From NCBI GenBank assembly GCA_963827165.1, contig CAWGZR010000010.1, positions 160,001 to 224,000 of the forward strand: a DNA stretch of 64,000 nucleotides, in the 5' to 3' direction. This stretch comes from Candidatus Bathyarchaeota archaeon (GTDB lineage Archaea > Thermoproteota > Bathyarchaeia > Bathyarchaeales > Bathycorpusculaceae). A model generated the notes under the pieces. It worked only from the letters and a program-made list of their open reading frames with translations. It did not search any database and had not been told where the DNA came from. A program made the translations under genes and the position numbers. Positions 13,152 to 51,814 of the stretch are shown here, piece after piece. Position 1 is the stretch's first letter. Each line of letters begins with the position of its first letter.

Positions 13152-13153
13152 GA

Positions 13154-14569: not shown

Positions 14570-14866
14570 AAACTTATTTTTTTCAATTCAAATTATGGAA
14601 CCTTAACGAAACTATGCGAGATTGCGCAGCCAAAATTTTACCGCAAAGTATCCCGTGTGACGTGGGTATAACATTGTACTTTCTTTTCTTAACTACTTGC
14701 ATAGTTGTCACACTCTTCACTCATTCTATGGCGACTACTAAATAACTTTTGGGTAGGATAGCGTCTGTGGAAGACCTTTAGCGAGTTTTAAGTCCTATTG
14801 CGGTGTTTCAGAATTTGTATGTCACTTTAATGCGTCTATTATAGACTATGTTTTTGAGGTTAATTT

Positions 14867-15052
14867 ATGGAAAATGAAGAACCTGAAACTAAAGAAGAGT
14901 GCATGAAAGCATTTTACCGTATACTGCCAAAAGAAATGGTGGAGTATTGTAAAAAGGACTTGTATGTTTCAGACGGTGAAGAATGGGGTTACCAAGTGGG
15001 TTTCGTAGTTGGCGTTAAATATGTCATAGAAAAATTCCTAAACCCTACTTAG
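14867..15052 (+). CDS. Hypothetical protein (61 aa)
   Basis: GAGGT RBS plus ATG; no recognisable motif. Confidence 0.55.
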   Translation: MENEEPETKEECMKAFYRILPKEMVEYCKKDLYVSDGEEWGYQVGFVVGVKYVIEKFLNPT

Positions 15053-15237
15053 AAAGGGTGGATGACCATCTGAACGGTAAAGATTCAGTTCACTAAAATG
15101 AACAGCGACCGACTGAAGAATCTCCCTTCTTTTCACTTTTATCAACGTCTTCCCTGTTGTGAGTGAATTTTCTATCATAATTGAAACAGTGCAATCATTT
15201 TAAGCAAAAACAACAAATAGTCTCCGTAGGTGTGAAT

Positions 15238-15462
15238 ATGGGGAGCACGCACACAGACAAGAAGGGTTACAAAAGATACGGTGATAGTGGGTTGTTGGAG
15301 CATAGGGTTATAGCATCGAAAAAGATTGGTGGTCCAATAGGAAGAGGCAGAGTTGTTCACCACGTTAATGGAGACAGGAGCGACAACAGAGGGAGCAATT
15401 TGCGTGTTATGAGTGGAAGTAACCATTCTTCGCTTGAGGCTAAGAAGCGCAGAAGGTACTGA
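15238..15462 (+). CDS. Small HNH endonuclease (HNH_3-like)
   Basis: EHRVIA...VVHHVNGDRSDNRGSNLRVMS..NH. Confidence 0.8.
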   Translation: MGSTHTDKKGYKRYGDSGLLEHRVIASKKIGGPIGRGRVVHHVNGDRSDNRGSNLRVMSGSNHSSLEAKKRRRY

Positions 15463-15844
15463 AAGTAATCATTTCAATACCCTTTTGCAAAAGAAGCTTG
15501 TGAATTGCACATGTTCATTACAGTTCTATGGAAGTTGATTTATCTCAACTTTGAGATGCTTATGGTCGCACTCCTGTCGGTGTTGGAGCATGCTGCCTAA
15601 AATGCAACATCTACTTTGCTTCAGAAATATAGTTGAACAATCTATTGCAAAAGAAACTACCTTTGAAGTGTCCTATGTGCAATGTAAGTTTCCGTCAGAA
15701 CTACTCTTTTATTTTCAACCATCATGTTGTAGAAAAAGCGCCTATGTGATTAGTTGAAGCACTTTTCTCTACTAAACGCATTGTTTGTTCAGGCATAAGT
15801 CAAGAAAAGCATAGAGTAAGCGAACTGCTAATTCACCTTCTTGA

Positions 15845-16153
15845 TTAGAACTTGCAGAAAAGCTCCCACAGCAAATCAACAAGGAAGCATTTATCTTCTC
15901 CACATCTGCAAATACTGAAAACGCACCCAAATTCCACTCGCTTCTTAGGGAAAAACTCCAATCAAGAGGATATACGATTGTTGACGAATTTAATTGTGCT
16001 GGATTCAACTGGTGGGGTCCATTAAAACTGGTGGGTGGCACTAAGAAAGATAGACCAAACATTGAAGATCTCAAACATGCTGAAGAGTTCGCTTTGAAAA
16101 TAAAAGATAAACCACAAAAGACTAATGAAATGACTATTACTGTCCACAGTTAA
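15845..16153 (+). pseudogene. 5'-truncated flavodoxin-family gene (C-terminal half); not in the ORF track
   Basis: Start-less frame LELAEKLPQQINKEAFIFSTSA...FHSLLREKLQSRGYTIVDEFNCAGF..GPLKLVGG.KKDRPNIEDLKHAEEFA, preceded by in-frame TGA. Confidence 0.75.
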
Positions 16154-16325
16154 ATTTTGTTCCAAACCACTTGGTAAACCATTTAAAACTTCCACATTCA
16201 TCTCTCGAAGCGCATGTTAAGCAAGGAAATTCCTTACCAGCAACGTCTATTACACTTGATATTCTTTCGACAGTGGCTTTTTCATTTACGATTTCTTCGA
16301 CTTGTTTTTCTATTTCACCTGACAT
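16137..16325 (-). CDS. Small Cys-rich hypothetical protein
   Basis: CLTC..RDEC motif; GGTG RBS. Confidence 0.55.
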   Translation of the reverse strand: MSGEIEKQVEEIVNEKATVERISSVIDVAGKEFPCLTCASRDECGSFKWFTKWFGTKFNCGQ

Positions 16326-16404
16326 CTCAAATCACCTAAATATTGAACCTAAAATAGACAACAAAAAGAAAAAAGTGTTTGAGAGTTTTGTAAAACGTTT
16401 GCAT

Positions 16405-16806
16405 CTATGCTAGTTTTTTGCTACCTTGTCCGGGCGAAGCGGAGAAGACTTCAGTGACTTTTATTATTCCAACACTTTTTATTTTCATTTTCGAGGTTTC
16501 CATACTCTTCTTTGCGAAGTTATCGAAAATTGGTCCGTTTGTTTGGAAACCACTGAATGTTCCCTTTAGTTGGTAGCCTGTCATTGGTCCTTTGAACACT
16601 GCAATAGCAACTTGCTTGTTTTTTTCAAGGTTTTCTTTTGTTTTTATGATGAAAACTTCTGCGAACGCAATAGTTTCGGGGTCTACTGCTACAAAGCTCC
16701 ATAATGGAACTACGTTTGGAATGCCTTTAGCGTCTACTGTTGCAATCATTTTCGCTGAATCACTTGCACTTAAAACATCCATTACTTCTTTAGGTATACT
16801 TACCAA
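16405..16806 (-). CDS. Pyridoxamine 5'-phosphate oxidase-related FMN-binding protein
   Basis: IATVDAKGIPNV, KTKENLEKNKQVAI, GYQLKG, SASPG. Confidence 0.85.
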   Translation of the reverse strand: MVSIPKEVMDVLSASDSAKMIATVDAKGIPNVVPLWSFVAVDPETIAFAEVFIIKTKENLEKNKQVAIAVFKGPMTGYQLKGTFSGFQTNGPIFDNFAKKSMETSKMKIKSVGIIKVTEVFSASPGQGSKKLA

Positions 16807-16841
16807 AATTCACACTTCCTACTAATGGAAACATAACTGCA

Positions 16842-16874
16842 ATACTCTAATATACTTTTAGGGAATTAGAATAT
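16842..16874. promoter_or_regulatory. Inverted repeat in the divergent promoter, possible ArsR operator
   Basis: ATACTCTAAT-N13-ATTAGAATAT (9/10 complementary). Confidence 0.4.
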
Positions 16875-16903
16875 ACTCAGCAAATGCAAGGGAAGTACAG
16901 TAT

Positions 16904-17668
16904 TTGGCTAACACAGGCAAGGATTCATCATCCGATTACCTAATTGGTGCAATCGCTGAGTTGAAGATGGAGATTAAAGGCTTAAGAGCAGACATGAACA
17001 GGGTAGAAGAAACCGTTTTGAAGGAACGTCTTCGTGCAATTGAAGATACTCTTATACAAAATCACCTATTGGTCTATGCTGGTCAGAGGTCGCAATCTCT
17101 AAATCAAGACATTGCAACGTTGCTCAAAGAAGATTGCCAAAACAGAGACAAATGTCTTGAGCATTACAAAAACACAATAGAAGAAAACACGCAAGTTATC
17201 AAACAGTCTGGAACAAAAGAAGCTCTTGCAGACTTTGATGATAAAATAGCTGAAACCGAGTTAATGGTTGAAAAGACCAAAGGTCAGCAATGCGGAAACT
17301 GTTTCTCCAACTTTGATAAGAAGCTAAAGCGTGAAAAAAGAGCGTTCCAAGAAATACTCTTGGTCAAAGACGTTAACAACGATAAAATAGTTAACAATCG
17401 GTCTTTGGATATTCCATTTCTTTTGCAAAACTTGTTTGAACCTTTAGGAAATGATTCACGGCTCAAAATCTTAGCTATTGTATATGAGGGAAAAAAGAGT
17501 TTCTCAGAGTTGTCAAAAATAGTAGACCTCAAAGCTGGTCATCTCACATTTCACTTAAAAAAACTGGTTAATGCGAAGTTGATTGCTCAAGAAGCATCGA
17601 AAGGAGATTACATCATAACTCAAAAAGGCTTGGCTCTTGTTAAGGAGATGCTTAACCTTCAAAAATAA
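16904..17668 (+). CDS. ArsR-family wHTH regulator with Cys-containing N-terminal extension
   Basis: EPLGNDSRLKIL...SFSELSKIVDLKAGHLTFHLKKL...YIITQKG; CGNC. Confidence 0.8.
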   Translation: MANTGKDSSSDYLIGAIAELKMEIKGLRADMNRVEETVLKERLRAIEDTLIQNHLLVYAGQRSQSLNQDIATLLKEDCQNRDKCLEHYKNTIEENTQVIKQSGTKEALADFDDKIAETELMVEKTKGQQCGNCFSNFDKKLKREKRAFQEILLVKDVNNDKIVNNRSLDIPFLLQNLFEPLGNDSRLKILAIVYEGKKSFSELSKIVDLKAGHLTFHLKKLVNAKLIAQEASKGDYIITQKGLALVKEMLNLQK

Positions 17669-17692
17669 AGCTAACAGATTAAAGGTGATTAG

Positions 17693-18295
17693 ATGAAGAT
17701 AAAAATCAGGATGTATTCAGATTATATCTGTCCTTTCTGTTATCTCGGTGAAGCAATAATTGAAAAACTCAAAAACAGATACGCCATTGAAATGGAACAT
17801 ATCGGCATAGAAATCCACCCTGAGACACCAGAAGAAGGAGTAGACCTGAGAGGAAGAATCTACGGAATAGAAGAGATGTATGAGAATTTGAGGTGTAGAG
17901 GAAAAGAGTATGGTCTTAACTTCTGTGATGTTGGACTCCTCTCGAATTCAAGAGGAGCACTCATAGTCGGTGAATATGCTAGAACTGTCGGCAAGAATGC
18001 AGAATTCACCCATGAGGTATTCAAAGCCTACTTTGAAGGTTGCTTAGATATTGGGAAAGAAGCAGTTATTTTGGAAATTGCACAGAAAGTTGGTTTATTT
18101 AAGAAAGAAGTCGAAGACTGCTTGAAAAACCCGTTGTATCAAAATAGTTTTGCGGATAACTGTGCTGAAGCTAGAAAACACGATGTTAGCGGTGTACCAA
18201 CATTCATTGTAAATGGCAAATACAGAATCACGGGAGCACAGTCAGAGGAAACATTTGTGGAGTTCTTTGAAAAGATTAACAAGGAATGCTCCTGA
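17693..18295 (+). CDS. DsbA/FrnE-family thiol-disulfide oxidoreductase
   Basis: YSDYICPFCY and GVPTFIVNG...GAQ. Confidence 0.9.
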   Translation: MKIKIRMYSDYICPFCYLGEAIIEKLKNRYAIEMEHIGIEIHPETPEEGVDLRGRIYGIEEMYENLRCRGKEYGLNFCDVGLLSNSRGALIVGEYARTVGKNAEFTHEVFKAYFEGCLDIGKEAVILEIAQKVGLFKKEVEDCLKNPLYQNSFADNCAEARKHDVSGVPTFIVNGKYRITGAQSEETFVEFFEKINKECS

Positions 18296-18547
18296 AGTTA
18301 CAAAAAGACTTGGAAGAGTTCGCTTCAAAAAACTGAAGAAGTGAAATCAAGAGACATGAATGGAAAACTATTGTCTTCATAGTCTATGTACAGTTGCTTT
18401 ATCTCCACCTTTGACTTTTCTCTGTTTGCCGAGCAAATCCTTTTGGGTCACTAGCAGGTAAGAGCACCAACACTCCAGCAACTCCTATTTTTTCACCTGC
18501 CAGTGACCAATTCGAAACTCTCAAACATCAAATAGTATGTCCGCGTT

Positions 18548-18607
18548 GCCTCTCTTGTATGTGCTTTTAGTGGTCTTTTTGTTGAGCCTATTGAGGAATA
18601 CTTCCAT
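18548..18607 (-). pseudogene. Possible 5' stub of a tyrosine integrase
   Basis: MEVFLNRLNKKTTKSTYKRG resembles integrase N-termini (FL..L...T...Y); starts ~40 nt inside the island right arm and points inward. Confidence 0.4.
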
Positions 18608-18731
18608 GTTGGTAAGTGCTTTTTGTTCTGTACATTTAGGTTTCTAAGATATACCCATGTTGTGCGGAACACCGCAAAGTATATTGCTCATAGAGTTAGT
18701 TCTAACCCAGTTTTAGTTTGACCATGAGCCG

Positions 18732-19424
18732 ATGAGTATGGCTGTAGAAGCGGTAATATTCGATTTAGACGGGACAATTGCGCATTTCAACTTGGACTAC
18801 AAAGCCCTGCGCGCTGAAATCAGAGGCTTCCTTATGAGAGCAGGAGTTCCCGCTTCGGTTTTAAACATTAACGAAAGCATTTTTGAAATGCTGGGAAAAG
18901 CCGAGATTTTCTTCAAGAACGGTGACAAATCAAATTCGGCCAACGTGTTTGGAGCGGTTCGCGCAGAAGCTTTAGCTATCGCTGAAAAATACGAGATGGA
19001 AGCTGCTTCTACAACAAGTTTGCAGACAGGAGCCGTTGAGACGCTGAAAGAGCTCAAAGCGATGAATCTAAAGATGGGTTTATGCACCATTAACAATGAA
19101 AAAGCAGTAAAGTACATTCTTCAACGCTTCAAAATTGAAGAATTCTTCGCCGCAGTTGTTCCACGAGAAAAAGTTAAGTACGTCAAGCCACATACGGAAC
19201 AGTTTGAAATGACGCTTAAAGTGCTGGGAATCCAAGCTCAATCGACCGTCGTCGTCGGAGATAGCGTTGCTGACATGCAAAGCGCCAAAGAACTCAAAGC
19301 AATCGCGGTTGGAATCCCGACTGGAACAGCTACAATGGATCAACTTAAAAAGAATTCAGCGAATTACATCATAACTTCGCTAAGTGACCTACCGCATCTC
19401 ATCAAAGAAATAAATAAGCCTTAA
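18732..19424 (+). CDS. HAD-family hydrolase (phosphoglycolate phosphatase-like)
   Basis: FDLDGT, KP and VGDS..D motifs. Confidence 0.9.
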   Translation: MSMAVEAVIFDLDGTIAHFNLDYKALRAEIRGFLMRAGVPASVLNINESIFEMLGKAEIFFKNGDKSNSANVFGAVRAEALAIAEKYEMEAASTTSLQTGAVETLKELKAMNLKMGLCTINNEKAVKYILQRFKIEEFFAAVVPREKVKYVKPHTEQFEMTLKVLGIQAQSTVVVGDSVADMQSAKELKAIAVGIPTGTATMDQLKKNSANYIITSLSDLPHLIKEINKP

Positions 19425-38647: not shown

Positions 38648-38935
38648 TTAGAACACACTATTTTTCAATTCAATTAAAGTTTTTAGCACCAGTTTAAGCG
38701 CAGAGTCGTAGCCGCCGTAGTATTCTGTGCTTTGGTCTGGGTCCGCATACGCTCGCTCCACCATCTCTTTTTCAATACCTTCGTTAGTCAGCTGGATTGA
38801 ACCTTCTTTTAGCCATATCAAAGCATCCACATACCCGTGTTCTGAGTCTGAAAGCTCATCTGTTTCAGATGATTCTGCCTTCCGCCTGATTATTTCATCA
38901 ATCTTTTCTTTTAACTTGTTCTCAACTTTGCTCAC
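38648..38935 (-). CDS. Hypothetical protein with an internal two-fold repeat
   Basis: GYVDALIWL and GYDSALKLVL segments. Confidence 0.55.
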   Translation of the reverse strand: MSKVENKLKEKIDEIIRRKAESSETDELSDSEHGYVDALIWLKEGSIQLTNEGIEKEMVERAYADPDQSTEYYGGYDSALKLVLKTLIELKNSVF

Positions 38936-39216
38936 TTCTTTCCACCCGTTCGATTACTGCCTTGTTATGGAGTTAAATATTTGTTTGCTCATTTGCGATG
39001 CTTTTTTGGGTCTTAATGAAAAAAACATTGGTTAGCAGTCTGTTCTTTTCTTTCAGCCTTCAGCAAACAAGGTGAAGCGCAAACTGTCTTAAGATATTTA
39101 TAGCGGAATTATCGCAAGAAATCCCCCACATAATGCAAAGGCAGTAATTCCCGAATACATAAGGGATAAAGTTAACTTATCGGCTCAGGCATTCTGTACT
39201 TGTTGAGTTGATTTTT

Positions 39217-39651
39217 ATGTCCTGGTTAAAAGGTATGCGAGAAAAAGAGCCACCAGAACCCGTGAATCCGATCGGAACAGTTGTGCTAGGTACGCTTCAT
39301 CCGGATATTATGGATACTGCTAAAGAAATGGTTAGAAAATCGCTCAAAGCAGCACAATTCAAAACCATTGACGCGGGAAAAGGCATTTCTCCGGATGCTT
39401 TCGTGGCTAAGGCGAAACAAGCAAACGCTGACATTCTCGTGGTGACGGTTGGTCTAACAGCAGCCAAAGAAAACTTACCTAAACTAATCGCGGAGATAGA
39501 GAATGAGGGTTTGAAGGGAAAAATCACGGTAATGATAGGCGGAGCTGCGGTCACAAAGGAAGACGCAGATAAGATAGGCACATTGTTTGGCAAAACTCGG
39601 GAAGAAGCAGTGGTTCTCGCTAAGAAAGTAATTCAGAATAAAAAAACCTAA
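39217..39651 (+). CDS. Stand-alone cobalamin (B12)-binding domain protein with a degenerate DxHxxG motif
   Basis: VVLGTL..DIMDTAK, DAGKGI, VMIGGAAVT match the corrinoid-protein fold. Confidence 0.75.
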   Translation: MSWLKGMREKEPPEPVNPIGTVVLGTLHPDIMDTAKEMVRKSLKAAQFKTIDAGKGISPDAFVAKAKQANADILVVTVGLTAAKENLPKLIAEIENEGLKGKITVMIGGAAVTKEDADKIGTLFGKTREEAVVLAKKVIQNKKT

Positions 39652-39906
39652 CTTCCTTGCAAGTCGAAACGTGGCCTTGAAATCCAAGGATCAATGTCAC
39701 TTCCAATAAGTAGTTATAAGCTATGCTCGATTGCCATAAAACGCAGCTTATATCTTTGGTAATTGTCGTTGGGATGGAAGAGGTCATTGCTAAAAGATAG
39801 CAATTTTTTCTATGTCTAACTGTGACACCCAAAATGAATACGGAAAAAGGCAAAAGCAGAATGACAAGACATGATAGCTCTGGACTTTTTTGGAAACAAG
39901 CTCTCA

Positions 39907-40335
39907 TTAAACGATGTTGTAAATATGTATAATCAATCCGAGAACCAATGCGAAAATCCAAATCACGAAAGCTGGTAACATTAGCCTCCACGCTCTTGAA
40001 CAACCGAGCTCCCCCAAAGGATGACTTATCCACGTAACAATAATGCCAAAACCTAACGCTATGGCAGCGATTCCAAAGGCAGCATGAAGCCAAACAATTG
40101 CTGATTGAACAATTGATAATTTGCCGATGAGAGCTAAATTACTGCTTAGAACAGGAATCATTACGTAGAATACGGTGGCAAGGTTTAATGCAAGCGCCAA
40201 GATGCTGAGAAATCCATGCATTATGAGGTTTCTATTCTTGGTTCTTATTCTGTAAGGATAAACTCCTACAGTAAGCAATAGTAATGCCACTATTTGAATG
40301 ATAGAAACTACATTACCTTCAAAGTCAAGCACCAT
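39907..40335 (-). CDS. Four-TM membrane protein (DUF420-like)
   Basis: Four TM helices with conserved-looking His (MHG, WLH). Confidence 0.55.
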   Translation of the reverse strand: MVLDFEGNVVSIIQIVALLLLTVGVYPYRIRTKNRNLIMHGFLSILALALNLATVFYVMIPVLSSNLALIGKLSIVQSAIVWLHAAFGIAAIALGFGIIVTWISHPLGELGCSRAWRLMLPAFVIWIFALVLGLIIHIYNIV

Positions 40336-40791
40336 AAACTAACACCGCAATGCAGATATAGTAATCATACAGCAACCGCTTAATTGGCAGTTACATCGGA
40401 AAAGGTCAGTCATACTAAATAAACAGCTCTATATTCGAGAAAACGAAATTTGGGGCAACTAAAGAAGGGATCAGTTAAATCCCGGGTATGTTGGCGATAA
40501 GTCAATGCAATATAGCGCACGCTATGACGAATCGAAAAATTCATTGCTTCACTAGAGTTTTTTTGATATGAACTATTACAGCGACAGATAAGACGGAAAG
40601 AAGCAAAGGAACAATCCCAACCAAGAGGGGGCGGCAGAGGTTAAGGTTAGTACCTTGCGGCAGAAAAACAGGCAAAATGTTAAATGGCGATAATATTAAA
40701 TAGCGTTAACTAGAGAACTGGAAGCAACCAAGAAGGGGCGCATTCTGGGTAGAGAGATCGTAAAACGAGAAAAAGTTTTCCTGGATTATGT

Positions 40792-41001
40792 GTGTTGCTT
40801 GGACTGTTATGCTTGTTTTATTTAGTTGGAGCAGCCCATGCTGATGCAATTCCGACTAGTCCTATAGTATACTATGGTTTATTTTTCGGAATTCTGTTGA
40901 GTGTAGTCATTGTTTTAGCTATTGTAGGCTGGTTGATTTTGAGAAGGATCCCTCAACAAAAAACAGGGCTAGCAAACTATTTCCTTTCTGACGGCGAATA
41001 A
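40792..41001 (+). CDS. Small membrane protein
   Basis: Signal-like AHAD plus TM. Confidence 0.45.
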   Translation: MLLGLLCLFYLVGAAHADAIPTSPIVYYGLFFGILLSVVIVLAIVGWLILRRIPQQKTGLANYFLSDGE

Positions 41002-41017
41002 CTGGGTTGCTTTCAAG

Positions 41018-41368
41018 ATGTTTGCAGGCTTTTTTGATTTCGCCATCGCTTTGTCTTTGACAATCGTCATAGAATGTAGTGTTGCCTTCGCCTTTGGATT
41101 AAGAACAAGAAACGCTTTGTTAGCCGTTTTTGCAATAAATCTAATAACCAATCCCATTCTCAACTGCTTCATCACTATTACAAAGATTCTTAATCTGTTT
41201 CAAATCAATACTTTCATTCTATTGCTCCTAGAGTTACTTGTCGTGTTCGTTGAGTGGAGAATGCTGGTTTATTCTATAGACGGAAGCCTCAAAAAACTGC
41301 TAATACTCTCATTTGTCATGAATACGTGCTCTTTTGTTTCAGGCTTGATTCTTTTCAGTTTATTTTAG
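41018..41368 (+). CDS. Four-TM hypothetical membrane protein
   Basis: LTIVIE, INLITNP, ELLVVFVE, NTCSF..G pattern. Confidence 0.65.
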   Translation: MFAGFFDFAIALSLTIVIECSVAFAFGLRTRNALLAVFAINLITNPILNCFITITKILNLFQINTFILLLLELLVVFVEWRMLVYSIDGSLKKLLILSFVMNTCSFVSGLILFSLF

Positions 41369-41580
41369 TGCTTATGGTTTCATCTTAAGTGGATGGCTTA
41401 TATTTTGGCGGGCATAATTATCGCTCGTTTAACCAACATAATTCTTAAATTCATTAATTTGGGAGCAGAAATATCTCTTTTTTTGCTACTCTCTGGGAGT
41501 AGAGATATTTCCTTTGGCATTTTGAGGTCACTGAGTAGAGGGTACTTGAAAGTTGCTTAAAAATATTATTTCTATTAAAT

Positions 41581-42008
41581 TCAAAGGTTGATTTCTTCGG
41601 GTTTCAAACTTGTTTTCTTGTTCCATAGGTCTTTTCTCATAGCGATTACCGTTTTTGCATAAGTGGCATTTTTCAGGTTTTTGAATAAATTCCTTTAGTG
41701 ATTTGATAACATCATCTGAAGCAAAAAGTAATAAGTTAAACCATTCTGTCACGTACTTCATTCTTCCAGTCTTCAAGGGTTACCAAGTCGGGTCTAAGGT
41801 GTTTAAAATACTTCATTTGGTCGGGTTCGACCACTGATTCGCATCTGAATAACTATAGCCAAATACCTTTTTTCTATTCTCTTTCTGTTCGCTAAATTTG
41901 ATTTGTTTTCTCTTATCAAAATAGTAAGTTAAAGAAGCCGCCAATGATACCAGCACTATCCCAATAAAAGCGACAATCGAAAGCGATTATCTCGTCATAG
42001 CCTACCAT
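41581..42008 (-). pseudogene. Frameshifted N-terminal-TM hypothetical cargo gene
   Basis: Pieces SIVAFIGIVLVSLAASLTYYFDKRKQ, TEWFNLLLFASDDVIKSLKEFIQ and AMRKDLWNKK in different frames. Confidence 0.5.
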
Positions 42009-42108
42009 GTTTAACAAATCTCTCCAGCTTTGCAGATTTAAGACTTGTCTACTCTAAATAGCGAAGTTACTAACCCTTGAATGTACTTAATGATAGCTCT
42101 AACCATTT

Positions 42109-42318
42109 CTATAGTAGTGGAGATTTACGCCTTATCTCATCTAATTCTCTTAAATCATTAGCGTTAAGAATACCCCTCTTGAAAAGTTCCTTTATTATTG
42201 CGCCAAGTATAAAGTAGTTTTTTCGATAAGATACTTCCAGCTTTTTAACTTCAAGCCTCAAAGAAGCTATTCTACTTTCAAGTTCAAGTTCCTTAATCTC
42301 TAATTCTTCATTAGACAC
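42109..42318 (-). CDS. Small coiled-coil protein
   Basis: Heptad-like LELESRIASLRLEVKKLE. Confidence 0.55.
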   Translation of the reverse strand: MSNEELEIKELELESRIASLRLEVKKLEVSYRKNYFILGAIIKELFKRGILNANDLRELDEIRRKSPLL

Positions 42319-42444
42319 TGTTTAACCTTCATGTACTCGGTAATAGCCCTTAGAAACTTAGCTAAATAGTCCTTTCTTCTACAGCTTCGGCTAATGCTTC
42401 AAAGAGGACGTTAACCACGACACTCTAACTTTTCTCGCCCTGAA

Positions 42445-42585
42445 TCACTCGTATTTAGATACGTACCTCTTTTCAAGTGGTAATTCATAGCCAAATTCCT
42501 TTTTAATCACTTTCTTAATTATTTCTCGGTTAGCTTCAATGCGTATTTTCTTAGTTTTTAATTGCTTTAAAATCTCGTTGTCCAC
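42445..42585 (-). CDS. Small basic hypothetical protein (46 aa)
   Basis: GTG start after GGTG, own promoter-like repeat upstream. Confidence 0.4.
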   Translation of the reverse strand: MDNEILKQLKTKKIRIEANREIIKKVIKKEFGYELPLEKRYVSKYE

Positions 42586-42720
42586 ACATCATTTTTTCAC
42601 CTTAATTCTATTTCAGGCTATACAGATTTAAGACTTATTATGAAAATAACTTACCAGAAATTCATAAATCTTATTTCTTTTTTAGAAAATAACAATTGGT
42701 TATCTGACGTCTGTTAGTAG

Positions 42721-42987
42721 ATGATAGGTATGGACATAGACAAGAAAGAAACTAAACAAGTTTTGAAAGTAGAATTTTTAAAAGAGTTACTTAAAGAAAT
42801 GGCTAACTCTGAAGAATTTAAAGATGACAAAGATTTAATTGAAAACTATTTAATAGTAGAGAATAACGCAAAAATATCCTTTAGTTGGCGTTATTGGATT
42901 CAATCACATGGTGTTCCCGATAAAAGAGTTGAAGAAACCTTAACAAGAATAATTAATTGGTTGGCTTCTAAATTGAGTGACCAATAG
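42721..42987 (+). CDS. Hypothetical protein
   Basis: Clean ORF with upstream promoter-like repeat. Confidence 0.55.
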   Translation: MIGMDIDKKETKQVLKVEFLKELLKEMANSEEFKDDKDLIENYLIVENNAKISFSWRYWIQSHGVPDKRVEETLTRIINWLASKLSDQ

Positions 42988-43132
42988 CTTAAAACACAAT
43001 CAGCCGAACAAAAACATTCTTAGTAAGAAAATTGTCTATTATTTACCCGTCAACATTTCAAATTCATAAATCGTAAATATGCTTAGAAATAGCCTTGAAA
43101 GTAAAGAAGCACCTAACCTCGGTCACAGTAAC

Positions 43133-44211
43133 ATGCCAATTGAACCTTTAAGATGTAAAGTATGCGGTGGATTATTAGATGACAGACTTAAGTGTCAACA
43201 CTGCGGAACGCTTCACGAGAGAGTAGAAAATAGGCTTGAAATCATTAGAGTTTGTCCTAAACATTTGATTGGATATTCCGTTTCTGAGTGCCCTAAATGC
43301 ATAGAAGAGCAACAAGCACTAATACTCTATAATCAAGAGCAAGCAAGATTATCTGCTGAAAAAGAAGGGGCACTTAGAAAAGAAAGAGAGGCATTTGAAA
43401 AAGAAAAGTTAAGAAGAATAGAACAAGCAAGACTCGAACATGAACAATGGAAGAAAAGCGCTTACCCCAAACTAAAGAAACTTAGTGTTGTAGCTCTCTT
43501 ATGCTTGATAATTGGGGTTGCTGGTATTTGCTTATCAACAGAGAATTACATATCTCATAATGTTAATGTTGTATCTCATACATCTACTTCGTATGAGCTA
43601 CCTGTTCCAAGTCCCACTCCAACATCAGTAGCACCAACTTCACCGATAACAGTAATTAGTAATAATGGCTTGTTATGATTTCAACCTTTGGGATGGTGAA
43701 CTTAGCGGTATTGATGTTTCTGCTCAACATTTACTGTTCTTCCGTTTCAGTCTATTTGAATAATGGAGAAGCATCTAATTTTCTGTGGACAGACGATTTT
43801 GGTGGTCTTGGTTTACCTAATGGTATTGATGTTATTAGTTTCTCTAAATTGGTTTCTGGTGACACTTATTTTATTTCCGCTACTTATGCTACTGAATATG
43901 ATGGACCAGAATCTTGGGTTACACTGAATGCTACAATAATGATTAATTATATTCCAACAGCCACCCAATTAAATGAATTAGTTAATGGAATGCCTACACC
44001 ACAACCAACTTCACAACCTACAGGGAAATATGTTACTCACACAACCATACTAAATGAAACATACTCTTTCAATCAAGGAATGAGCAAAATAAGCACAAGC
44101 ACAATAGGAATTACTGAAATTCTCTTAATAGTGATTGGAGCCCTTATTCTTGTTGCTATACCGATTGTAGTATATTCAAAAAGCTGTTATGAACTTGAGC
44201 AAGCACCCTGA
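43133..44211 (+). CDS. Zn-ribbon + coiled-coil + TM + extracellular domain + TM protein; probably one gene split near 43675-43730
   Basis: CKVC/CQHC/CPKH/CPKC, TM and PT linker in the first ORF; overlapping second ORF ends in a TM. Confidence 0.5.
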
Positions 44212-44241
44212 CGTTCAATGACATAGATAAAAAAAATGATG

Positions 44242-44326
44242 TTACCGAGAACAAAAATACTCGGTAAAAGAAATTAATGATACTTGGGGTTTTTGTTCCC
44301 GTAAAGCTCTTGATAGAGTTCTACGG
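44242..44326. terminator. Two hairpins between convergent transcription units
   Basis: TTACCGAG-N10-CTCGGTAA and CCGTAAAGCTCT-TGAT-AGAGTTCTACGG followed by a T-run. Confidence 0.45.
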
Positions 44327-44405
44327 TTTTCTCTTACTTAACCCTATTTGCGTTAAGATTTCTTCTTTAGTGTCTTCTTTGTTGCTCATCAGAAGAACTT
44401 TCTTC

Positions 44406-45085
44406 TTAGTCTGAGTTGTCTGCTAATTCTTCTGGGGTTTGAAACTTTATCGTGTAAGGCTTATTTTCTACTTGTTCAGGTGCTTTGTCTTGGATAACAA
44501 CTGTCCACTTGTTGCTAATGGGGAGATTGGTTTTTGGTATCATACTTGGCTGTGTAATCTTAAGCGTCTTTGTTTTAGGGTCTATCTCTGCCATTCTGTC
44601 AGTACTGGTAAAAGCTTCCGATTGAGCCTTCTCGATAGTCAGCGTTTCCATTTCCAGTAGGAATAAGTAAACCGTATCCAGTAGTTGAAACGTAGATTGT
44701 GATAGGAACAAAAGTCATAGTGCCCATGTTTCTACCTTTTGCTAAGAATCTCTGTAAAATTGTATTGTACTCGGTTTGAAGGTCTTCTCTATACTGTACC
44801 TGATGAACGTGTTATTTGTGGGTCTAACTCGTATAGTCTGTCTAAGTCTTCTATTTGGTATTTGTCTAAGCCCTCTGTTAATTGTGCTCGCTCTGCTTCT
44901 TTTCGTCTCTGTTGTTGCTCTGCGTTTACCTTAGCTGATAATGCTAAGTTTCGGTCTCTTTGTTCTCGCTCTGCTATTCGTCTTTGTTTATCTGCTTCAA
45001 CTATTGCTTTTCTTTCTTCTATTTCCTGTTGCCTTTGCGCTTCTAATTCCTCTGGTGTTGGCTGTTTAGAATTAATCAAAATCAT
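44406..45085 (-). CDS. Hypothetical element protein(s), coiled-coil N-terminus, likely frameshift-split
   Basis: Track ORFs 44789-45085 and 44406-44711 with coding-like sequence between them. Confidence 0.4.
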
Positions 45086-46139
45086 TCACGCTACTAAGAT
45101 TGCTCACTTCGTTTATTCTCTAAGTCAACAGAGAAATTGGATAAAAACTTGCTGTTTAACTGTTGAATGCTAATCTCCTTAGCTCTCGGGAGACTTTGTT
45201 TGGTTTGGACATGCTTTTTAATAGAATAACCTCCCTATCCGTATCCTGTCTATACTGAAAACCTTTTAATTCTTTAGCCATTAGTGGCACTTCCCCGAGT
45301 TGCATTGAGCTTGAAAATATCGTTTCAGAAGTCTAATTCGCTCTTTAGCTTTAGGAGAAGGTAAACCGAATTGTAGTTAGGAGAGCTATATCTCCTTCTA
45401 ACTTTGCGATTTTAGCTAATCCTATTCTCTTCTAACTGGACACTTAGACTTATCACAGTCATTATGTCTGAAAGCGTGTTTTTTGATTGTTGACATTAGT
45501 TATACCATCCGTATTGCGAATTTATCTCTGCACTCAATTCTTTGAAAGAGAATCCAGTGTTCAATACGATGCACAAGAATAGACTATGCTGAAGACTTAG
45601 CGTCTGTTTTCTTGTCACAAGTTGGATACAGACATTTCTTACTAGATAACTGCTAAAGTGACCTAAGCTTCGACCATTTAGCAAAACTTCCCCTGAGCAT
45701 TTCTTTTTCTTGGGGTAGGATGGTCTCGGTGACATCTTTTACCACAAGAGACTTTATCAGGGTCATAAGTTCGAAAGGCTTCACCTGCACTTTGACACAA
45801 TTTCTTATGTAGAATGAGACTGGGCTAATATTGACTAAGTTAGACAATTTGACCGACCTCGTATCTCTCGGCGTTATGAAAAACTTTACATCTTAGCTTA
45901 TGAACTTCTATTTTCTCTTCTTTGTCCCGACATTTGTTTGGATTAGGATTATGTTTGCTGTATCTAAATTTAGCAAGTGGATTAGCCTTATGATACCGTT
46001 CTTTTTGAGAAATGGATTGTTCTTTTTTAAAATCTGGATGTGACTTCGAGGAGTTCTAAGATATTTTGCATGACCCTTCATTTTTTTAATTAACTTGTTT
46101 CTCAAGAATAAACTTTGTATATTCAGCTTCAATATCACT

Positions 46140-46306
46140 CTTAGTTATGTCTAGGGTGTGTTCTTGAAAAGTGTCTTAGTTGGTCAGTGTACCGTTTTCG
46201 CTCTCGTTTGCACTCTTTGCTACAACATACCACTTTTGCATCTTGGCTTCATATACTTGTTTCCAGTGAAGGGGTTCCCACAGACAACACAAATAAAATT
46301 ACTCAT
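46140..46306 (-). pseudogene. Small Zn-finger protein (frameshifted)
   Basis: MSNFICVVCGNPF followed in another frame by VVCCSKECKRERKR. Confidence 0.45.
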
Positions 46307-47309
46307 TCAGGGGTAAGCTCCTTTGGTAGTTCAATCGCTATAATAAAATAGGTTTTCTTGGTTGATAATATTTTAGACATGAAGTCTTTCGCTATGTTTT
46401 CCGCAGACGATGAGTAGTTGCTTTCCTCTTTCGTAGTATCTAATTGAAGTTGATATATCTGGTCTGGATACTTAGCTGCTAATGGATTAAATTTCTCGGC
46501 TACTTTAGAAACATCATCAACGTAGCTTTCTGCCTTAGTGTTAACAGTTTTTGGATGTTGTAGGGCTTCTATCTCTTGAGGTATCTCTTTCAATATCTTC
46601 TTAGATGCTGACTTATCCTTGTATTTCAGGGGGTCATATTTGGCTTTTATTTTCTCTTGAAGCTTTACTCGTCTATCTTTTGTTACGCTTTGATTCCAGT
46701 CTGCTCGTGTTGGGATTAACGCTATGCTTTCATCAACCACAGCAGCAGATTCTAAAAGGTCTAAAGTCTCATGCCATTTATTTTCTTCTATGCATTTCTT
46801 TTGTAATTCTGAGGCTAATTCGGGGTTGCAGGTACTCAGTACCGAGGAGGCTAAAATGAGGTTTAATTTCCTAATCTTTTTGACTGTTTCACTGCTTACT
46901 TTCCCAGTTATTTTACTTGCTACTTCTTTATCTGGAATGTCTTTTTCATAACAATCTTTCCATAAACAGCTAGTGCATGAGTAACTCTCTGGTACATGTT
47001 CGAGTGTTTTTGTTTATCGTCTATTTGAAAAGCGTATTCTTTAGCCTCTTGGATTGATACTAAAGTTTAAGACTTTAAAGGTTATTTTGTAGTCTTCTAA
47101 ACCAATACTCATGTAAAGCGTGGTAACGATGATGACCGTTAATAATGGTTTTATCGGACATAACTTCAATGTCTTCTCTTTGACCTTTACTTTTAAGGTC
47201 TGCTACGAAATCGGCGTATTCTTCTTTTGACATCTTAGGCGATAAAGCTTCAAGCTCTGGGTTAATCTTAAATGGTGCTTGCTATTAATTCTTCTGAGTA
47301 TTCTATCAT
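46303..47309 (-). pseudogene. ParB/Srx-like N-terminal domain + HTH protein, frameshifted; mostly missed by the ORF track
   Basis: INPELEALSPKMSKEEYADFVADLKSKGQREDIEVMSDKTIINGHHRYHAL (ParB GxxR box); later DKEVASKITGKVSSETVKKIRK (HTH) in frame with track ORF 46303-46740. Confidence 0.75.
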
Positions 47310-47753
47310 TCATTGTGTAGTCCATCCATTAACGGTTTTGGCTTTTTGTTTTCTATGTTGCACTCTTTTAAAATCAGAGACGTAACCGAACTTACCAAGC
47401 ACTCTCAATAAGTGCCATGCTTGTTTTCGCTCTTCTCTACCATTATTAAAAGCGTAGAGTAGACCGTCTTTTTTGTTAATATAAATCGTTGGTTTAGTCG
47501 GGTAATTGAATACTATAAATTCTTCTATATCGGAAAAGCTTGTAATGATAAAGTAAACCTTCGCTATTTCTTTCAGCGTTCTAATATCAATCGGCTTAAC
47601 TGTTCCTGTAACTTCATCGTAGAAATTTAGGTCAGTGAATTTTGCTTCTATCTTAATGAGCTTTTCAAAATTTAGACTGTCGTCTACTAAAACATCTCTT
47701 TTTAGAGAAGAATTATTAGTATTAGATAATAAAGCGGTAACCCTCTTACTCAA
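47310..47753 (-). CDS. Hypothetical protein abutting the ParB-like gene
   Basis: Intact 147-aa ORF; TGA directly followed by the next ATG. Confidence 0.6.
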   Translation of the reverse strand: MSKRVTALLSNTNNSSLKRDVLVDDSLNFEKLIKIEAKFTDLNFYDEVTGTVKPIDIRTLKEIAKVYFIITSFSDIEEFIVFNYPTKPTIYINKKDGLLYAFNNGREERKQAWHLLRVLGKFGYVSDFKRVQHRKQKAKTVNGWTTQ

Positions 47754-47765
47754 TACTTACACCTT

Positions 47766-47905
47766 CTAACGTTCTGTTGCATTGAGAGCTTTCAATGCCC
47801 TTGAAATTATAGAATCGTAGGTTTCACAGTCTACTAATTTACTCTCATCCAGAGCTTTGTTTAGTATGACTGTGTGAACTACAACAAGATGTTTGCTTGT
47901 TCCAT
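47766..47905 (-). pseudogene. Small RHH/antitoxin-like DNA-binding protein (1-bp frameshift)
   Basis: TSKHLVVVH...KALDESKLVDCETYDSIISRAL. Confidence 0.45.
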
Positions 47906-47929
47906 ACGTACTATCACTATAGCTATTAA

Positions 47930-49185
47930 GTTTTATCGTGAGTATTATCCTTCAATAGTATGGGTACCAAAGTCGTTTTATAGAAAGATTGAATCCAATG
48001 GAGATTCTTTTATCATTTCCGAATTTAAAGAAGATAACAGTCTCTGACGATGTAATGATCCCACGTCATAGAAGTAACAGTCTATATGTTTCCAAGGAGT
48101 CTTTGTTTTCCTTATAAGGATTTCGAGAACTATGTTGTCTTTGATGTATCTTATCCTAAAAGTCCTTGGTTCTCTTTGTTAATTTGCATGGTAGTTGTCT
48201 ATAGGTTTAAAATGCTTTCTTATAGAACGGTTACATTGTTTAGATATCAGCTTAATCGATCACGACTAACAATTTTTCAATTGATTTAATCATTTCCTTT
48301 AGTAGCTACATCTCTACTTAGTCTTGCCTTCCCTTTACATAATTTGAACAATATACCTTTTCCTGCTGAAGTGTGGTTTTAGCTTTCTTGCCCATAGGAC
48401 ACAATTATCTGTGTTTGTGTCTTCTTTTTTTTGCTGTTCTTTATCTATAACTTTAATTGAGGAATAGATAATTTCGTGTTTTATTAAGCCAACGGAGACT
48501 CTTTGATTAATTTTCTAAATCTTTTGAATCGATAGATTTAGCATGGAAAAGTTTCTTTATTAATGTTTCTTGTTTCTTCTTCTTTCTTACTTATTATATA
48601 GGATATGTTTAGGAGCGTGAAAAGTGGTTTTACATGTATTGACAAATGGTATTCGTTTCGTTTGGTATACAGGTACTGAAATACTCAATGCCTTTGTCTT
48701 CTTTCAATAGTCTACAGATTATTAGCTTTGAATTATTGGTTTCATTAAGAACGAAAATAATTACAAATATGCCTTTGTTGTCTCTATAGTGAATAATGTA
48801 TTTTCAAATATAAAATGAGGTCTAAAGTCTGTAAGTTCTTTCGATTTCTGTCTAAGTATATAATCTATTTCAGAGTCATCGTAACTATCAGGTCTATTCT
48901 ATGCATCTATAATGAGAATGACATCTTACTAATGAGTGAGTATCTCTGATATGACATCGTTTAACACATTCATATACAACATTGCTCGTAGGAGTGTTAG
49001 CCAATTAGAGACTGTAAATCTTGAAACTTCTTTTTCTGTACAAGTTAGAATACTCTCCATTTATGCAAATAAGTAATTGATAGCATAATCAGTTTGTGGC
49101 TCTATTAGAGGGGATCTATACTTGCTAACTGAATCCCTATCCGTTCTAAGTTCTATCAATATCGTGTTTCTTTGAGGTTATCCAT
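47930..49185 (-). pseudogene. Heavily frameshifted large ORF, function unknown (possible Rep/NTPase)
   Basis: AGGAG RBS at the 5' end, A-rich coding-like minus strand, DVILIID Walker-B-like fragment. Confidence 0.3.
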
Positions 49186-49198
49186 CAAACATTATCTC

Positions 49199-49345
49199 CT
49201 ATTTGGTTGTCTTTAGCTTCTCTTTTTCAACCTCAGAGAAAACTCTAACAATAGCTTGCTCAAAGGTTTCTCGTCCTACCATATTTCTTTCTATCAAATC
49301 CTTTGTTGATTGGTGGATTCTGATAGTGCCATTTTTGTCTATCAC
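49199..49345 (-). CDS. Small RHH/CopG-like regulator (48 aa)
   Basis: NGTIRIHQSTKDLIERNMVGRETFEQAIVRVF beta-helix-helix pattern; first gene of the minus-strand operon. Confidence 0.6.
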   Translation of the reverse strand: MIDKNGTIRIHQSTKDLIERNMVGRETFEQAIVRVFSEVEKEKLKTTK

Positions 49346-49363
49346 GTTTATCAATCCTTAATA

Positions 49364-49411
49364 TAGTAGTACAGTGTAGCACTTAATTAAGGTAGTGGTA
49401 CAGTGTGGCAC
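49364..49411. promoter_or_regulatory. 19-bp direct repeats flanking a TATA-like box (probable operators)
   Basis: TAGTAGTACAGTGTAGCAC (49364-49382) and TAGTGGTACAGTGTGGCAC (49393-49411) flank TTAATTAA. Confidence 0.65.
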
Positions 49412-49439
49412 AATTCTACATGCATGTTATATTTGTAAA

Positions 49440-50460
49440 AACAGTTTAAAATCAAAATAAAGCCCATTTTGAGCTTGTAGGTACTCAGTACCTATCGCCT
49501 CATTTTGGGGTTCTTTTTACTTAGTGGCATAAACAGCCGAGAAGAGAAACTTAACACATTATCAATAAATTTTTATGTGTATTTCCAGCCAAACATTAAA
49601 CTCTCAGGGGCACGCACTCAGAAAGTCACAGCCATAATAAAAGTAACTTAGAGACAGCGTAAGCGTAGTTATTTTTTTATTATTTTTAGTGTCAGCCATT
49701 TTCCTCAATGGCTGTCTCGTTGACCATTGATTACGGACATTATTCGTTTAGCTCTTTAGATTGGGTTCTGTTTACTGGTTGCATGTTGAAAACTTAGGTG
49801 TTTACAATCGAATAGAATTAAGGTGTTTAGTCCCTTCGCATGGAGATTATCGAGGGTAGTTCTAACGGGGTCATGGTAATGTCCATGCCAATCAGTAATT
49901 CCCATGCCAATCTCTAAGGACTAATGGCTTCTTTCAGCTAAAAGCCTTCATTTCGATAAGAACCATTTTGAGTCTCTACAGTAAAAACTAAGGCTTGAGT
50001 TTCTGCTCTGTTCGGTATTGGTACGTTATGCTCTAAGGCGTATCTGCTATGCTTTCGGTGCATGGGTGCGGTGACTACCGTCTAACCCCTTAATAGCGCA
50101 CCCTACCATCCCAGAAACTTAGCCACTTAACCAGCACTCAACATACAATCATTGGTCTGGATGTTGGCTTGATGATGAGATTAGGAGTTTTAGAACCGTG
50201 AAGGGGTAAGATGGTACAGGTGGTAAGGCGTTAGTTAACTTTAATTAAAGTTGTATTCGGGTTACTATTCTATTATAATCATTGCAAACGAGCGTAGCCT
50301 GCAAGGCGCAGCGAGAGCAGCTATGTAGTAGGTTTTACGTATCTCTTCACTCGACTTTGAGTAGCTACCTAATAATGATTAGAGTTGCTTATGTAACGAG
50401 AGCGAAGGAAAAGAGCGAAAGTGATAGTACAAACAGAAAAAGCATGAGAAATTAACGATT
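49440..50460. other. ~1-kb non-coding, hairpin- and repeat-rich region (candidate origin or ncRNA)
   Basis: No ORF of 60 aa or more; 17-bp palindrome 49478-49494, nested stems, GAGCG(A/T)A motifs. Confidence 0.45.
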
Positions 50461-50484
50461 GTTGGTAACGGTTTAGTTACCATC

Positions 50485-51697
50485 TCAAGTATTTTCTGCT
50501 TTAAGAATTTCTGCTTCTTGCTCATGCTCTTACTTCATGAATCATGTACCAATTCTTCTATACTGTAGTCTTTAGGCAGTAGTTTACGGTTTTTGAGTGA
50601 GTCCATTAAGATGTCAAACGCATAAGAAATATGGCTGATTTTCTTTTGTTGGTCCAGTTTTGTAGCCTTCAAGTTCACTTTTAATTGCTTCTGGTGTTTG
50701 GGGCAACAAGTAAGGCAATGCAATTTCATATTTAATGAAGTAAGTTCTTTAAAGTCATGGCTCGGAATAATGTGCATCTACACCCTTAACTTTGTGTGCC
50801 ATTAATGAGGACTAATTATGTTTGCGTTGAACACCAGCGTTTTCTAAAGCACTTTGGAAGAATTCCCTTAAGTCATGTGGCGAAAATCGTTTAGTTTCCA
50901 AATCTCCCCATGCGGCAAGGCTCAAATCGTCAAAGATTCCATTCATGCCTTTGATGGTTAGCTCTTGAATTTTGCCTTTCTTCCAGTATGCGATGAATAT
51001 CGGAGAATCGGGTTTCAAATCATAACCTTTCTTTTGTGCTTCCTGTTTGTATGTCATTAACTTCTCGTAAGCGAACTTATGCAAAAACGTAATTTGTTTC
51101 AAGCCTTTGTATTTACCGACTCCAGAGCCTTTTAGTCGTGCACTTTCAACTTCAATAACAAAAGGCACGTTTGGGTTTTCTGTAGGTTTCAAATCTTGCC
51201 ATTTCAATAAAACAAGTGTACCGACCCTAACTGATGTTGAGCCAAAGAACCAAATTAATGCTTTATCCCTTGCTGAATGCGAAACGCTTTCTAAAACTGT
51301 TAAATCTTCAGTTGTTGGCTTGCGCTTTTTAGATTCTAGGGGTTTCATTCTTAACGTTGCTTGCTGTTTGTGCTTCTAATGCTCTCCTGTTATGTTTGTA
51401 GAAACTGAAAACAGCGTTTCTAAGCATAAGTCGGGCTGTTGGTTTCATGTGGGTTTCAGCGAAATAATTTTCTAAAAGGTTCTCTGCTTGCCACTCTTTT
51501 TCTGTTCCTACGTTCTGCAAACCCTCAACTTTTAGTGCAATTAATTGGTCTGGGGTTTTCTGTACAGCATCACAATAAACTTTAAAATATTCTGTGAATT
51601 TCTCTTTTGTCAGTTTACAACTTAGTTTATTTTGCCATGTTTTACCGCTTGCGAAGGTATTAATCCAAGCATCTCTATCTTCATTCATCTTACTCAT
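50485..51697 (-). pseudogene. Tyrosine recombinase/integrase with several frameshifts
   Basis: RDKALIWF..STSVRVG (R), FSPHDLR (HxxR), then LMAHKVKGVDAHY (H, catalytic Y) and KYEIALPYL in shifted frames. Confidence 0.88.
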
Positions 51698-51814
51698 TAG
51701 AAACCCCCCTTGAAATCTTAACTTTTATGGATTCAAAATAATTACTTCTGCTCCCTGAATGAGTAATTCTTAATTACCTCGTCTTCTATGGGTTCTGGCT
51801 TGAGGTTACATGAA

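Follow-up and report, generated by a model that had tools for sequence, protein, structure and literature searches.

Two decayed elements probably inserted by site-specific recombination at conserved promoter-proximal boxes in a Bathyarchaeota genome

Introduction

What do archaeal integrative elements target when they do not sit in a tRNA gene? The question is raised by a 64-kb stretch of a Candidatus Bathyarchaeota genome, in which no tRNA gene was found and two low-GC segments end a few tens of nucleotides (nt) before a host gene. The stretch, hereafter the window, is G000:C10:160001-224000 of a 3.13-Mb genome (G000); coordinates without a contig name are positions in the window. The guanine-plus-cytosine (GC) content is 0.38 at 14.6-18.7 kb, against 0.44 and 0.475 in the flanks, and 0.356 at 41.4-51.8 kb, against 0.443 in the flanks. 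Element 1 (14640-18682, 4.0 kb) adjoins the gene for a HAD-family hydrolase (18732-19424, +; PF13419 and PF00702; orthologues in congeners). Element 2 (41439-51773) adjoins ilvC, encoding ketol-acid reductoisomerase (51815-52882, +; the open reading frame (ORF) opens at 51788, and congeners begin at the MVK codon at 51815). An earlier note, made from the letters of the window, had named both host genes, in agreement with the domain matches, and had proposed that both elements target promoter boxes made of a B recognition element and a TATA box (BRE/TATA).

Most archaeal attachment (att) sites lie in tRNA genes, and some are intergenic, as for PsiM100, or lie in protein genes, according to the part of PMC8371274 available to us. 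In the corresponding part of PMC6563490, 68 thaumarchaeal elements comprise 39 at tRNA sites, 15 at intergenic sites, and 14 at gene 3' ends, with tandem reuse of sites. The window was compared with a set of 120 genomes of the genus (individual congeners carry G-numbers), with soil metagenome contigs, and with a wider genome collection. The repeats, inverted repeats, empty sites, homologous integrases, and positions that we observed make it probable that the window holds two unrelated, decayed elements, each inserted by a tyrosine recombinase through conservative site-specific recombination into a conserved promoter-proximal box.

Results

Boundaries of the element upstream of ilvC

Contigs of four soil metagenome runs (X1-X4) were compared with window positions 34000-53500. 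Metagenome contigs join 41438 directly to 51764; 10,325 nt are skipped, and 10 letters fit both sides. The mobile unit is therefore 41439-51773, with the core TAATTCTTAA. The joint is present in X1 at a contig depth of 11.3, and in X2 on a contig of 1,092 nt, in which 41088-41438 is identical to the window and 51764-52512 differs by eight gap letters and no substitutions (zero mismatches over 351 + 749 nt). A loose end at 41448 in X3 continues with TTACCTCGTCTTCTATG, the ilvC side. As far as contig depth is a rough guide, X1 is covered at 0-6 inside the element and at about 11 in the flanks. The empty-site sequence (..CATAATTCTTAATTAC..) and the right end (51762-51777) of the earlier note were correct, but its left end at 36790 was wrong: a single element spanning 36790-51777 is ruled out by the population joint.

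The attL core (41439-41448) closes an ancestral ilvC upstream arm (CATAATTATC-N-AACA; arm and core at 41413-41448, +), which matches the ilvC upstream region of many congeners and is present in the window as a whole. The attR core, again TAATTCTTAA (51764-51773), lies inside the conserved ilvC upstream box (51764-51777, +). Inside the cores are a left inverted repeat, GGGAGCAGAA (41461-41470, +), 12 nt from its core, and a right one, TTCTGCTCCC (51746-51755, +), 8 nt from its core. The core occurs 22 times in the genome and the inverted repeat 6 times, counting both strands. An 8.3-kb element upstream of ilvC in G087 has GGAAGTAGAA and TTCTACTCCC at the equivalent places, with a C-to-T change mirrored at both ends. 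This covariation suggests that the inverted repeats are integrase sites. The sequence following the arm, ATTCATTAATTTGGGAGCAGAAATAT (41449-41474), matches the left end of the G087 element; the two elements have only the integrase end in common.

The body of element 2 (41449-51763) is low in GC and absent from the population contigs, and its ORFs belong to no known family: there was no family match for the 11 cargo ORFs scanned with Pfam or the 8 scanned with PHROGs. The 2.7 kb at 47.8-50.5 kb contains a single ORF of at least 60 aa, and positions 47800-50500 are probably degraded genes.

Among 29 ilvC loci examined, one was cut by a contig end, and the box [AT]AAT..TTAATTA lies 38-51 nt before the MVK start in 28 of the 28 readable congeners. 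The form ACATAA[TA]TCTTAAT is found in 19 of the 28, many with the further arm GCATAATTATC-N13, and in 9 the upstream sequence ceases to follow the majority form precisely where the left side of TAATTC is reached. The region around 51730-51777 also carries two CATAATT half-sites about 24 nt apart, kept in many congeners; the arm of element 2 has AATAATTAC at the same distance, and these sequences are possible operator or integrase arm sites.

Integrase of the ilvC-adjoining element and its relatives

The integrase gene of element 2 (50668-51697, -) starts 66 nt from the attR core and diverges from ilvC. A PF00589 fragment (50812-51348, -) scores 29.2 bits against a cut-off of 27.1. The catalytic motifs can still be recognised, but one frameshift near 51330-51348 and one TGA, one TAG, and one TAA disrupt the frame, so this copy is a pseudogene. 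An X4 metagenome contig over 51143-51525 has no substitutions against the window but a single gap, perhaps close to the frameshift. Intact homologues adjoin ilvC in G022 (at least 355 aa, 72% identical, same place and orientation) and in G087 (392 aa). The G022 protein scores 38.6 bits with PF00589 and matches the phrog_1 integrase at E 8.8e-16. When 19 intact family members are aligned, R157, K189, R277, H300, and Y309 are invariant; among solved integrases, even the best PDB match is marginal (E 0.047). The int gene is not split as in SSV-type integration, since the core lies outside int and the integrated copies of G022 and G087 have uninterrupted int ORFs.

Homologues of the G022 integrase were found at E<=1e-10 in 55 of the 120 genus genomes. 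A collection-wide pattern scan yielded 33 family loci from different species, 30 on Bathyarchaeia or Bathyarchaeota contigs, 2 on contigs labelled 'uncultured archaeon', and 1 on a 'Limnocylindrales bacterium' metagenome-assembled genome (MAG). This last case (L206) probably reflects a binning error; the winged-helix gene beside its family integrase is the one that also adjoins the integrase in six Bathyarchaeia genomes. The distance from integrase to divergent host gene is 100-220 nt. By script, a divergent ORF of at least 70 codons was detected in 26 of the 33 loci, its start being 99-296 nt away from the first integrase residue in the match. Six further loci (L197, L208, L217, L221, L222, and L225) have a divergent gene or tRNA when inspected by eye or by other analyses, and L218 alone has no divergent neighbour. 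The pattern seen in the window thus extends to the integrase family of element 2, with a divergent neighbour in 32 of 33 loci.

About 20 different neighbour genes are involved. Ten were checked by Pfam and comprise a thermosome, a LeuA-like synthase, an HD-domain protein, a ferredoxin, an ACT-domain protein, a TFS-like zinc ribbon, a molybdopterin-binding protein, a winged-helix protein, and two proteins without a Pfam family. Most neighbours have G000 orthologues and are therefore host genes. Each integrase clade sits at one specific site. Upstream of the thermosome gene, the 20-nt repeat AAAAATTTATATTTAAATAT bounds elements of 6.4, 8.5, and 15.3 kb in G138, G084, and G086. With one mismatch allowed, this 20-mer is present in 40 of 120 genomes (reversed control, 0). 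It is single-copy in 36 and doubled on one contig in exactly 3, namely those in which an integrase adjoins the thermosome gene. In G114, the LeuA-like gene has the repeat TTTATATTTAA, and the empty G000 site matches the attL left flank and the attR right flank. At tRNA-Asn in G015, a 15-nt repeat (GAGTTATGCTTAAAT) lies 40 nt upstream of the tRNA and not inside it. G097 has a 22-nt repeat, and the molybdopterin-binding gene is a weaker case with an 11-12-nt repeat. The direct repeats cover TATA-like sequence wherever they can be defined, and the family cores end in ..TTAA(A)(T) on the host-gene strand.

G000 itself carries two further traces of such elements. At G000:C5:767480-767608 (L191), about 100 nt resemble the right end of the thermosome elements, including the stretch just upstream of the integrase start, beside a single thermosome box. 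This site, which has no integrase, reads as a solo scar that replaced promoter-upstream DNA. At G000:C11:76205-76350 (L192), the orthologue of the neighbour of the G088 integrase is preceded by integrase-promoter-like sequence and first codons, another stub; neither PF00589 nor tblastn detected an integrase there.

The element upstream of the HAD gene

The attL core of element 1 (14640-14651, +) is the direct repeat ACCGCAAAGTAT, with the same left junction in G035 and G003; its attR core (18671-18682) lies inside the conserved HAD upstream box ACCGCAAAGTATATT (18671-18685, +). The 12-mer occurs four times in the genome and is weak evidence by itself. The left terminal inverted repeat is ACGTGGGTATAAC (14660-14672, +), kept in G003, in G021, and, with one change, in G035. 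The right one is ACATGGGTATATC on the minus strand (18648-18660), and G035 has the same right end. The two repeats sit 8 and 10 nt inside the core copies, and the motif AC[GA]TGGGTATA[AT]C has exactly two occurrences in the genome, which are these inner ends in inverted orientation.

The HAD locus was compared in 20 congeners. All 20 have the box ACC[GA][CT]AA[AG]GTATAT about 50 nt before the HAD start, followed by conserved GTTAACCC. In 13 of the 20 the site is empty, with the stop codon of the orthologue of 7831-8826 (alcohol-dehydrogenase-like) directly upstream of a single HAD box. None of the nine window proteins from 9899-18295 was found within 10 kb upstream of HAD in the 20 congeners. 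The left junction in G035 and G003 reads as in element 1 (TTTACCGCAAAG, then TCCC..ACGTGGGTATA.CATT.TA.TTTCT), and the cargo of their elements is wholly different: one segment of 1.1 kb has two small ORFs, and the other, of 4 kb, has ABC-transporter genes. The attL and attR copies of each coincide over ACCGCAAAG (9 nt) only and then track either element or host, which indicates attP x attB recombination and not target duplication. Insertion of element 1 at the HAD box, claimed before from the letters of the window, is thus upheld by the repeat, the genome-unique inverted repeats, and the empty site.

A 78-nt query from the left end retrieved G003 and G035 among the 120 genus genomes, and this end occurs at one locus only, in 3 of the 120. 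The end motif had 39 matches across the genus, a number similar to that of the reversed control, and by context the G003 match alone is real. Of three weak left-end matches (L080, L081, and L083), two lacked the inverted-repeat motif; L083 was rejected because its motif falls within what seems to be coding sequence, and a ACCGCAAAG core is lacking in the vicinity. Positions 8830-8860 were considered as a third HAD box but dropped as a weak match.

The low-GC body of element 1 (14652-18670) carries cargo genes for a 61-aa ORF product, an HNH endonuclease (15181-15462, +), a PNPOx-like protein (16405-16806, -), a winged-helix regulator (16904-17668, +), and a DsbA-like protein (17693-18295, +). 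At the HAD end, a 28-codon ORF (18524-18607, -; MEVFLNRLNKK.., MEVFLNRLNKKTTKSTYKRGNADILFDV, then a stop) is a putative remnant of an integrase N-terminus. That this ORF adjoins HAD and diverges from it, as had been noted, is correct, but its best match in the genus (E 0.047 per genome) is not significant by itself. That match is the N-terminus (MEAFLNSYPKKNTRRLYKRG..) of a 472-aa ORF in G021, and the resemblance is suggestive of an integrase remnant. PHROGs identifies the G021 ORF as an integrase (phrog_216, E 9.5e-11), with no match in Pfam. About 60 nt upstream of its gene stands GTTATACCTATGT, the end motif of element 1. The G021 element (8.3 kb) carries this motif in inverted copies, and its 20-nt direct repeat, TCTATTGTGTTACGGAATGG, spans the last codons and the stop of a gene for a 366-aa protein. 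Because the ORF matched by the stub is an integrase and the G021 element carries the same end motifs, element 1 appears to belong to a real integrase family. The integrase families of elements 1 and 2 have no significant pairwise similarity.

Position and composition of the boxes

In line with the earlier proposal, both att cores lie in conserved AT-rich boxes 38-58 nt before the start codon, the integrase or stub stands at the host-gene end and diverges from the host gene, and the box remains with the host gene. Conservation at a fixed distance from the gene extends to 20 of 20 congeners for the HAD box and to all 28 readable ones for the ilvC box. Crude rules were used to select 600 intergenic upstream regions of G000, and in these the hexamers TAAATA, TTAAAT, TTTAAA, TATATT, and TTATAT peak 60-30 nt before start codons, with TATATT at -60..-51. 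A self-trained TATA matrix, seeded with TTTAAATA and trained on crude gene starts, converged on AAAG-YTTAAAT, and its sites begin mostly at -60..-45. Sites of at least 6 bits are present in 39% of the real upstream windows and in 14% of control windows. With this hand-seeded matrix, the ilvC core scores 7.4 bits at -50 (position 51765). The conservation and position of the boxes fit BRE/TATA, and the boxes may function as core promoters.

Discussion

Both elements would have been built and inserted in the same way. The cores of identity are 9-12 nt in element 1 and 10 nt in element 2, each within an AT-rich box 38-58 nt upstream of a housekeeping start codon. Read from the far end, the proposed order is host flank, core, a spacer of 8-12 nt, an inverted-repeat integrase site, and cargo, followed by the inward-reading integrase gene, the second inverted-repeat site, spacer, core, and host gene. 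After integration, the host gene would retain its box. An element arm and the promoter of the integrase would take the place of all DNA upstream of the box, with the integrase and host promoters standing back to back, and the displaced upstream arm with the second box copy would be moved to the far end of the element. The Bathyarchaeia family of element 2 would have spread in this divergent geometry over about 20 promoter-proximal boxes, with cores ending in ..TTAA(A)(T) that match the TATA-like consensus of G000. We infer that the boxes are core promoters (BRE/TATA), and that their conservation and harmlessness drive the choice of site.

Several points weigh against this reading. The promoter identity of the boxes rests on position, an AT-rich motif, and conservation, and the HAD box scores only 1.5-2.8 bits with the self-trained matrix. 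The only intact relative found for element 1, in G021, uses a gene 3' end, so promoter use is not a property of that family, which is not restricted to promoters; the earlier proposal of promoter-box targeting is partly supported, and it fares better than expected for the family of element 2. Since both integrases in the window are dead, the enzyme of element 2 itself does not account for the presence of this element in some near-identical strains and its absence from others. Several repeats in the family are short AT-rich stretches of 10-12 nt whose support comes mainly from their context, and the related genomes are non-independent samples, in which many loci have a common target by descent.

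Site-specific integration might also have occurred into boxes that are some other conserved non-coding element, such as an operator or a leader, used as the most conserved AT-rich DNA with no link to transcription. We regard this as unlikely. In its favour are the operator-like pair of CATAATT half-sites upstream of ilvC in many congeners, the poor fit of the HAD box to the TATA matrix, the G021 relative at a gene 3' end, and the intergenic archaeal att sites already on record in the parts of PMC8371274 and PMC6563490 (15 of 68) available to us. Against it, the cores of different targets share ..TTAA(A)(T), which corresponds to the most enriched upstream hexamers, and they lie at the peak position of TATA-like words. 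The thermosome and LeuA-like cores are textbook-like TATA strings, and orientation to the host gene is constant across about 20 targets.

A bolder form of the preferred reading holds that promoter architecture is itself what the family reads. In that case the TATA box would be the core ..YTTAAWT, polarity would reflect recognition of a directional BRE/TATA or of DNA bent by bound TBP/TFB, and pre-initiation factors would serve as the architectural cofactor, a role that IHF plays for lambda. Integrases would then hop from promoter to promoter and rewire the upstream control of housekeeping genes. We consider this version quite improbable.

The earlier note had placed the elements in a transposon-like family. 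Transposons, whether tyrosine-recombinase transposon-like or other, would have entered many AT-rich promoters, and the direct repeats would be target-site duplications. Terminal inverted repeats and short direct repeats are indeed present, and G000 has remnants of related elements at several promoters, yet the end motifs have a single genomic occurrence for each end, element 1 has its left end at one locus only in its 3 genomes, and the Pfam and PHROGs scans of the ORFs returned no transposase. There is one target per integrase clade, empty sites already contain the repeat once, and in G035 and G003 the attL and attR copies part after their 9 nt, with element on one side and host on the other. 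These three observations point to conservative site-specific recombination and not to target-site duplication, and transposition is very unlikely; that part of the earlier proposal was not confirmed. Scarcely credible is the view that there are no mobile elements, and that the upstream regions are rearrangement hot spots with chance or regulon motifs in AT-rich DNA: upstream gene content does vary widely among congeners, repeats of 10-12 nt are common by chance (TAATTCTTAA occurs 22 times), and ilvC-box-like copies recur at 36790 and 38451, but this view is already contradicted by the precise deletion form in population contigs, and also by genome-unique inverted repeats, homologous integrases at the same sites in other species, and a thermosome box doubled only where an integrase is present.

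Site-specific insertion at promoter-proximal boxes has partial parallels in known systems. In the available text of PMC8371274, the classical non-suicidal archaeal tyrosine integrases (among them the SNJ2 Int family and the pT26-2 family of Methanococcales) are likewise tyrosine recombinases with att outside int, so int stays intact when integrated, there and here. They also share short direct repeats, an int gene beside one att site, and tandem or successive use of a site. They differ in using mostly tRNA genes, whereas the core here falls in a TATA-like box that precedes a protein gene or, in one case, a tRNA gene; fixed orientation to the host gene is a feature of the present elements, when set against the classical integrases as described in that text. 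Integrases that target tRNA genes have their core within the tRNA, unlike the elements here: the window has no tRNA gene, and the G015 repeat lies upstream of one. AT-rich intergenic attB sites (phage lambda; PsiM100; 15 of 68 elements in PMC6563490) resemble the present ones in that no gene is disrupted; as far as these reports were available, the site is not tied to promoters, in contrast to the promoter-proximal, divergent geometry at about 20 genes. The pTN3-like suicidal integrases of Thermococcales target a tRNA gene in its 5' half, which leaves the tRNA to be transcribed from the promoter of the integrase (PMC8371274, in the part available). They too place the element at the host 5' side with int adjoining and touch transcription signals, but they split their own gene and replace the host promoter, whereas here int is unsplit and the host box is regenerated.

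The elements thus are classical tyrosine-integrase elements with an unusual, systematic target class. Outside the archaea, bacterial islands integrate at the 5' end of dusA, and the Ty3 retroelement inserts at Pol III start sites. These also choose the 5' or promoter side; Ty3 differs in enzyme and mechanism, and dusA integration occurs inside the coding 5' end. To our knowledge, none of the dusA islands and promoter-aiming eukaryotic retroelements is archaeal.

In our literature searches, we found no paper stating that archaeal integrases target promoters. The word 'promoter' has no occurrence in the main text of PMC6563490, and supplementary tables, such as its Table S2, may hold similar intergenic cases. 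In the literature available to us, archaeal integrases are described as tRNA-gene specialists and intergenic sites as scattered exceptions, whereas the present data indicate a consistent rule in one Bathyarchaeia-restricted family. If the boxes are promoters, conserved promoters would form a second class of safe and durable landing sites. The DNA upstream of ilvC, HAD, and other targets would then be expected to be a hot spot of gene content in the genus, and gene content upstream of HAD and ilvC is in fact highly variable among congeners. Every integration or decayed scar, such as the solo right end at the G000 thermosome gene, would likewise replace the upstream control DNA of a host gene. 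For a lineage without genetic tools, the family is in addition a source of natural, compact att/integrase pairs.

Other features of the window and related loci

Two additional copies of the ilvC site lie to the left of element 2. The ilvC-box-like copy at 36768-36805 (+), which had been taken as the left end, overlaps the stop of an arylsulfotransferase-like gene and is not a boundary of the mobile unit; its right flank at 36790 (AAG..ATGTAAAATGCCTGA) is kept in G013, G035, and G012, and its left flank differs in each. The other, a copy of arm and core, lies at 38427-38463 (+; CATAATCATT..AACATAATTCTAAAT) and is probably the scar of an earlier event. Both copies may be traces of earlier events at the ilvC site. 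In G013 (L130; copies at 9114, 10001, and 11947), two 38-nt copies flank a segment of 1.9 kb. A PPK2 gene suspected between two of the G013 copies proved wrong; the ORF there encodes a 403-aa secreted-looking protein. An Rfam scan of 36000-52000 gave no match at E<=0.1.

Upstream of element 1, positions 8827-14600 hold a TauE-like membrane gene, a gene for a 935-aa protein, a response regulator, and a PAS histidine kinase, between the alcohol-dehydrogenase-like gene and the HAD box. In 13 of 20 congeners the alcohol-dehydrogenase-like gene and the HAD box are adjacent; this region is a separate insertion.

At the tRNA-Asn locus of G015 (L174, flipped coordinates 13026 and 19691), the 3' half of the tRNA recurs as a 40-nt copy at a distance of 6.7 kb from the gene. 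The copy falls within the segment that the 15-nt repeat encloses, as if tRNA- and promoter-targeting elements overlapped. G114 (L173/L220), G020 (L157/L224), and the window's own genome (G000:C10:~376000) share a conserved mini-ORF, MGY[CR]FIQP[FL]P followed by a stop, which separates the LeuA-like gene from its TATA-like box.

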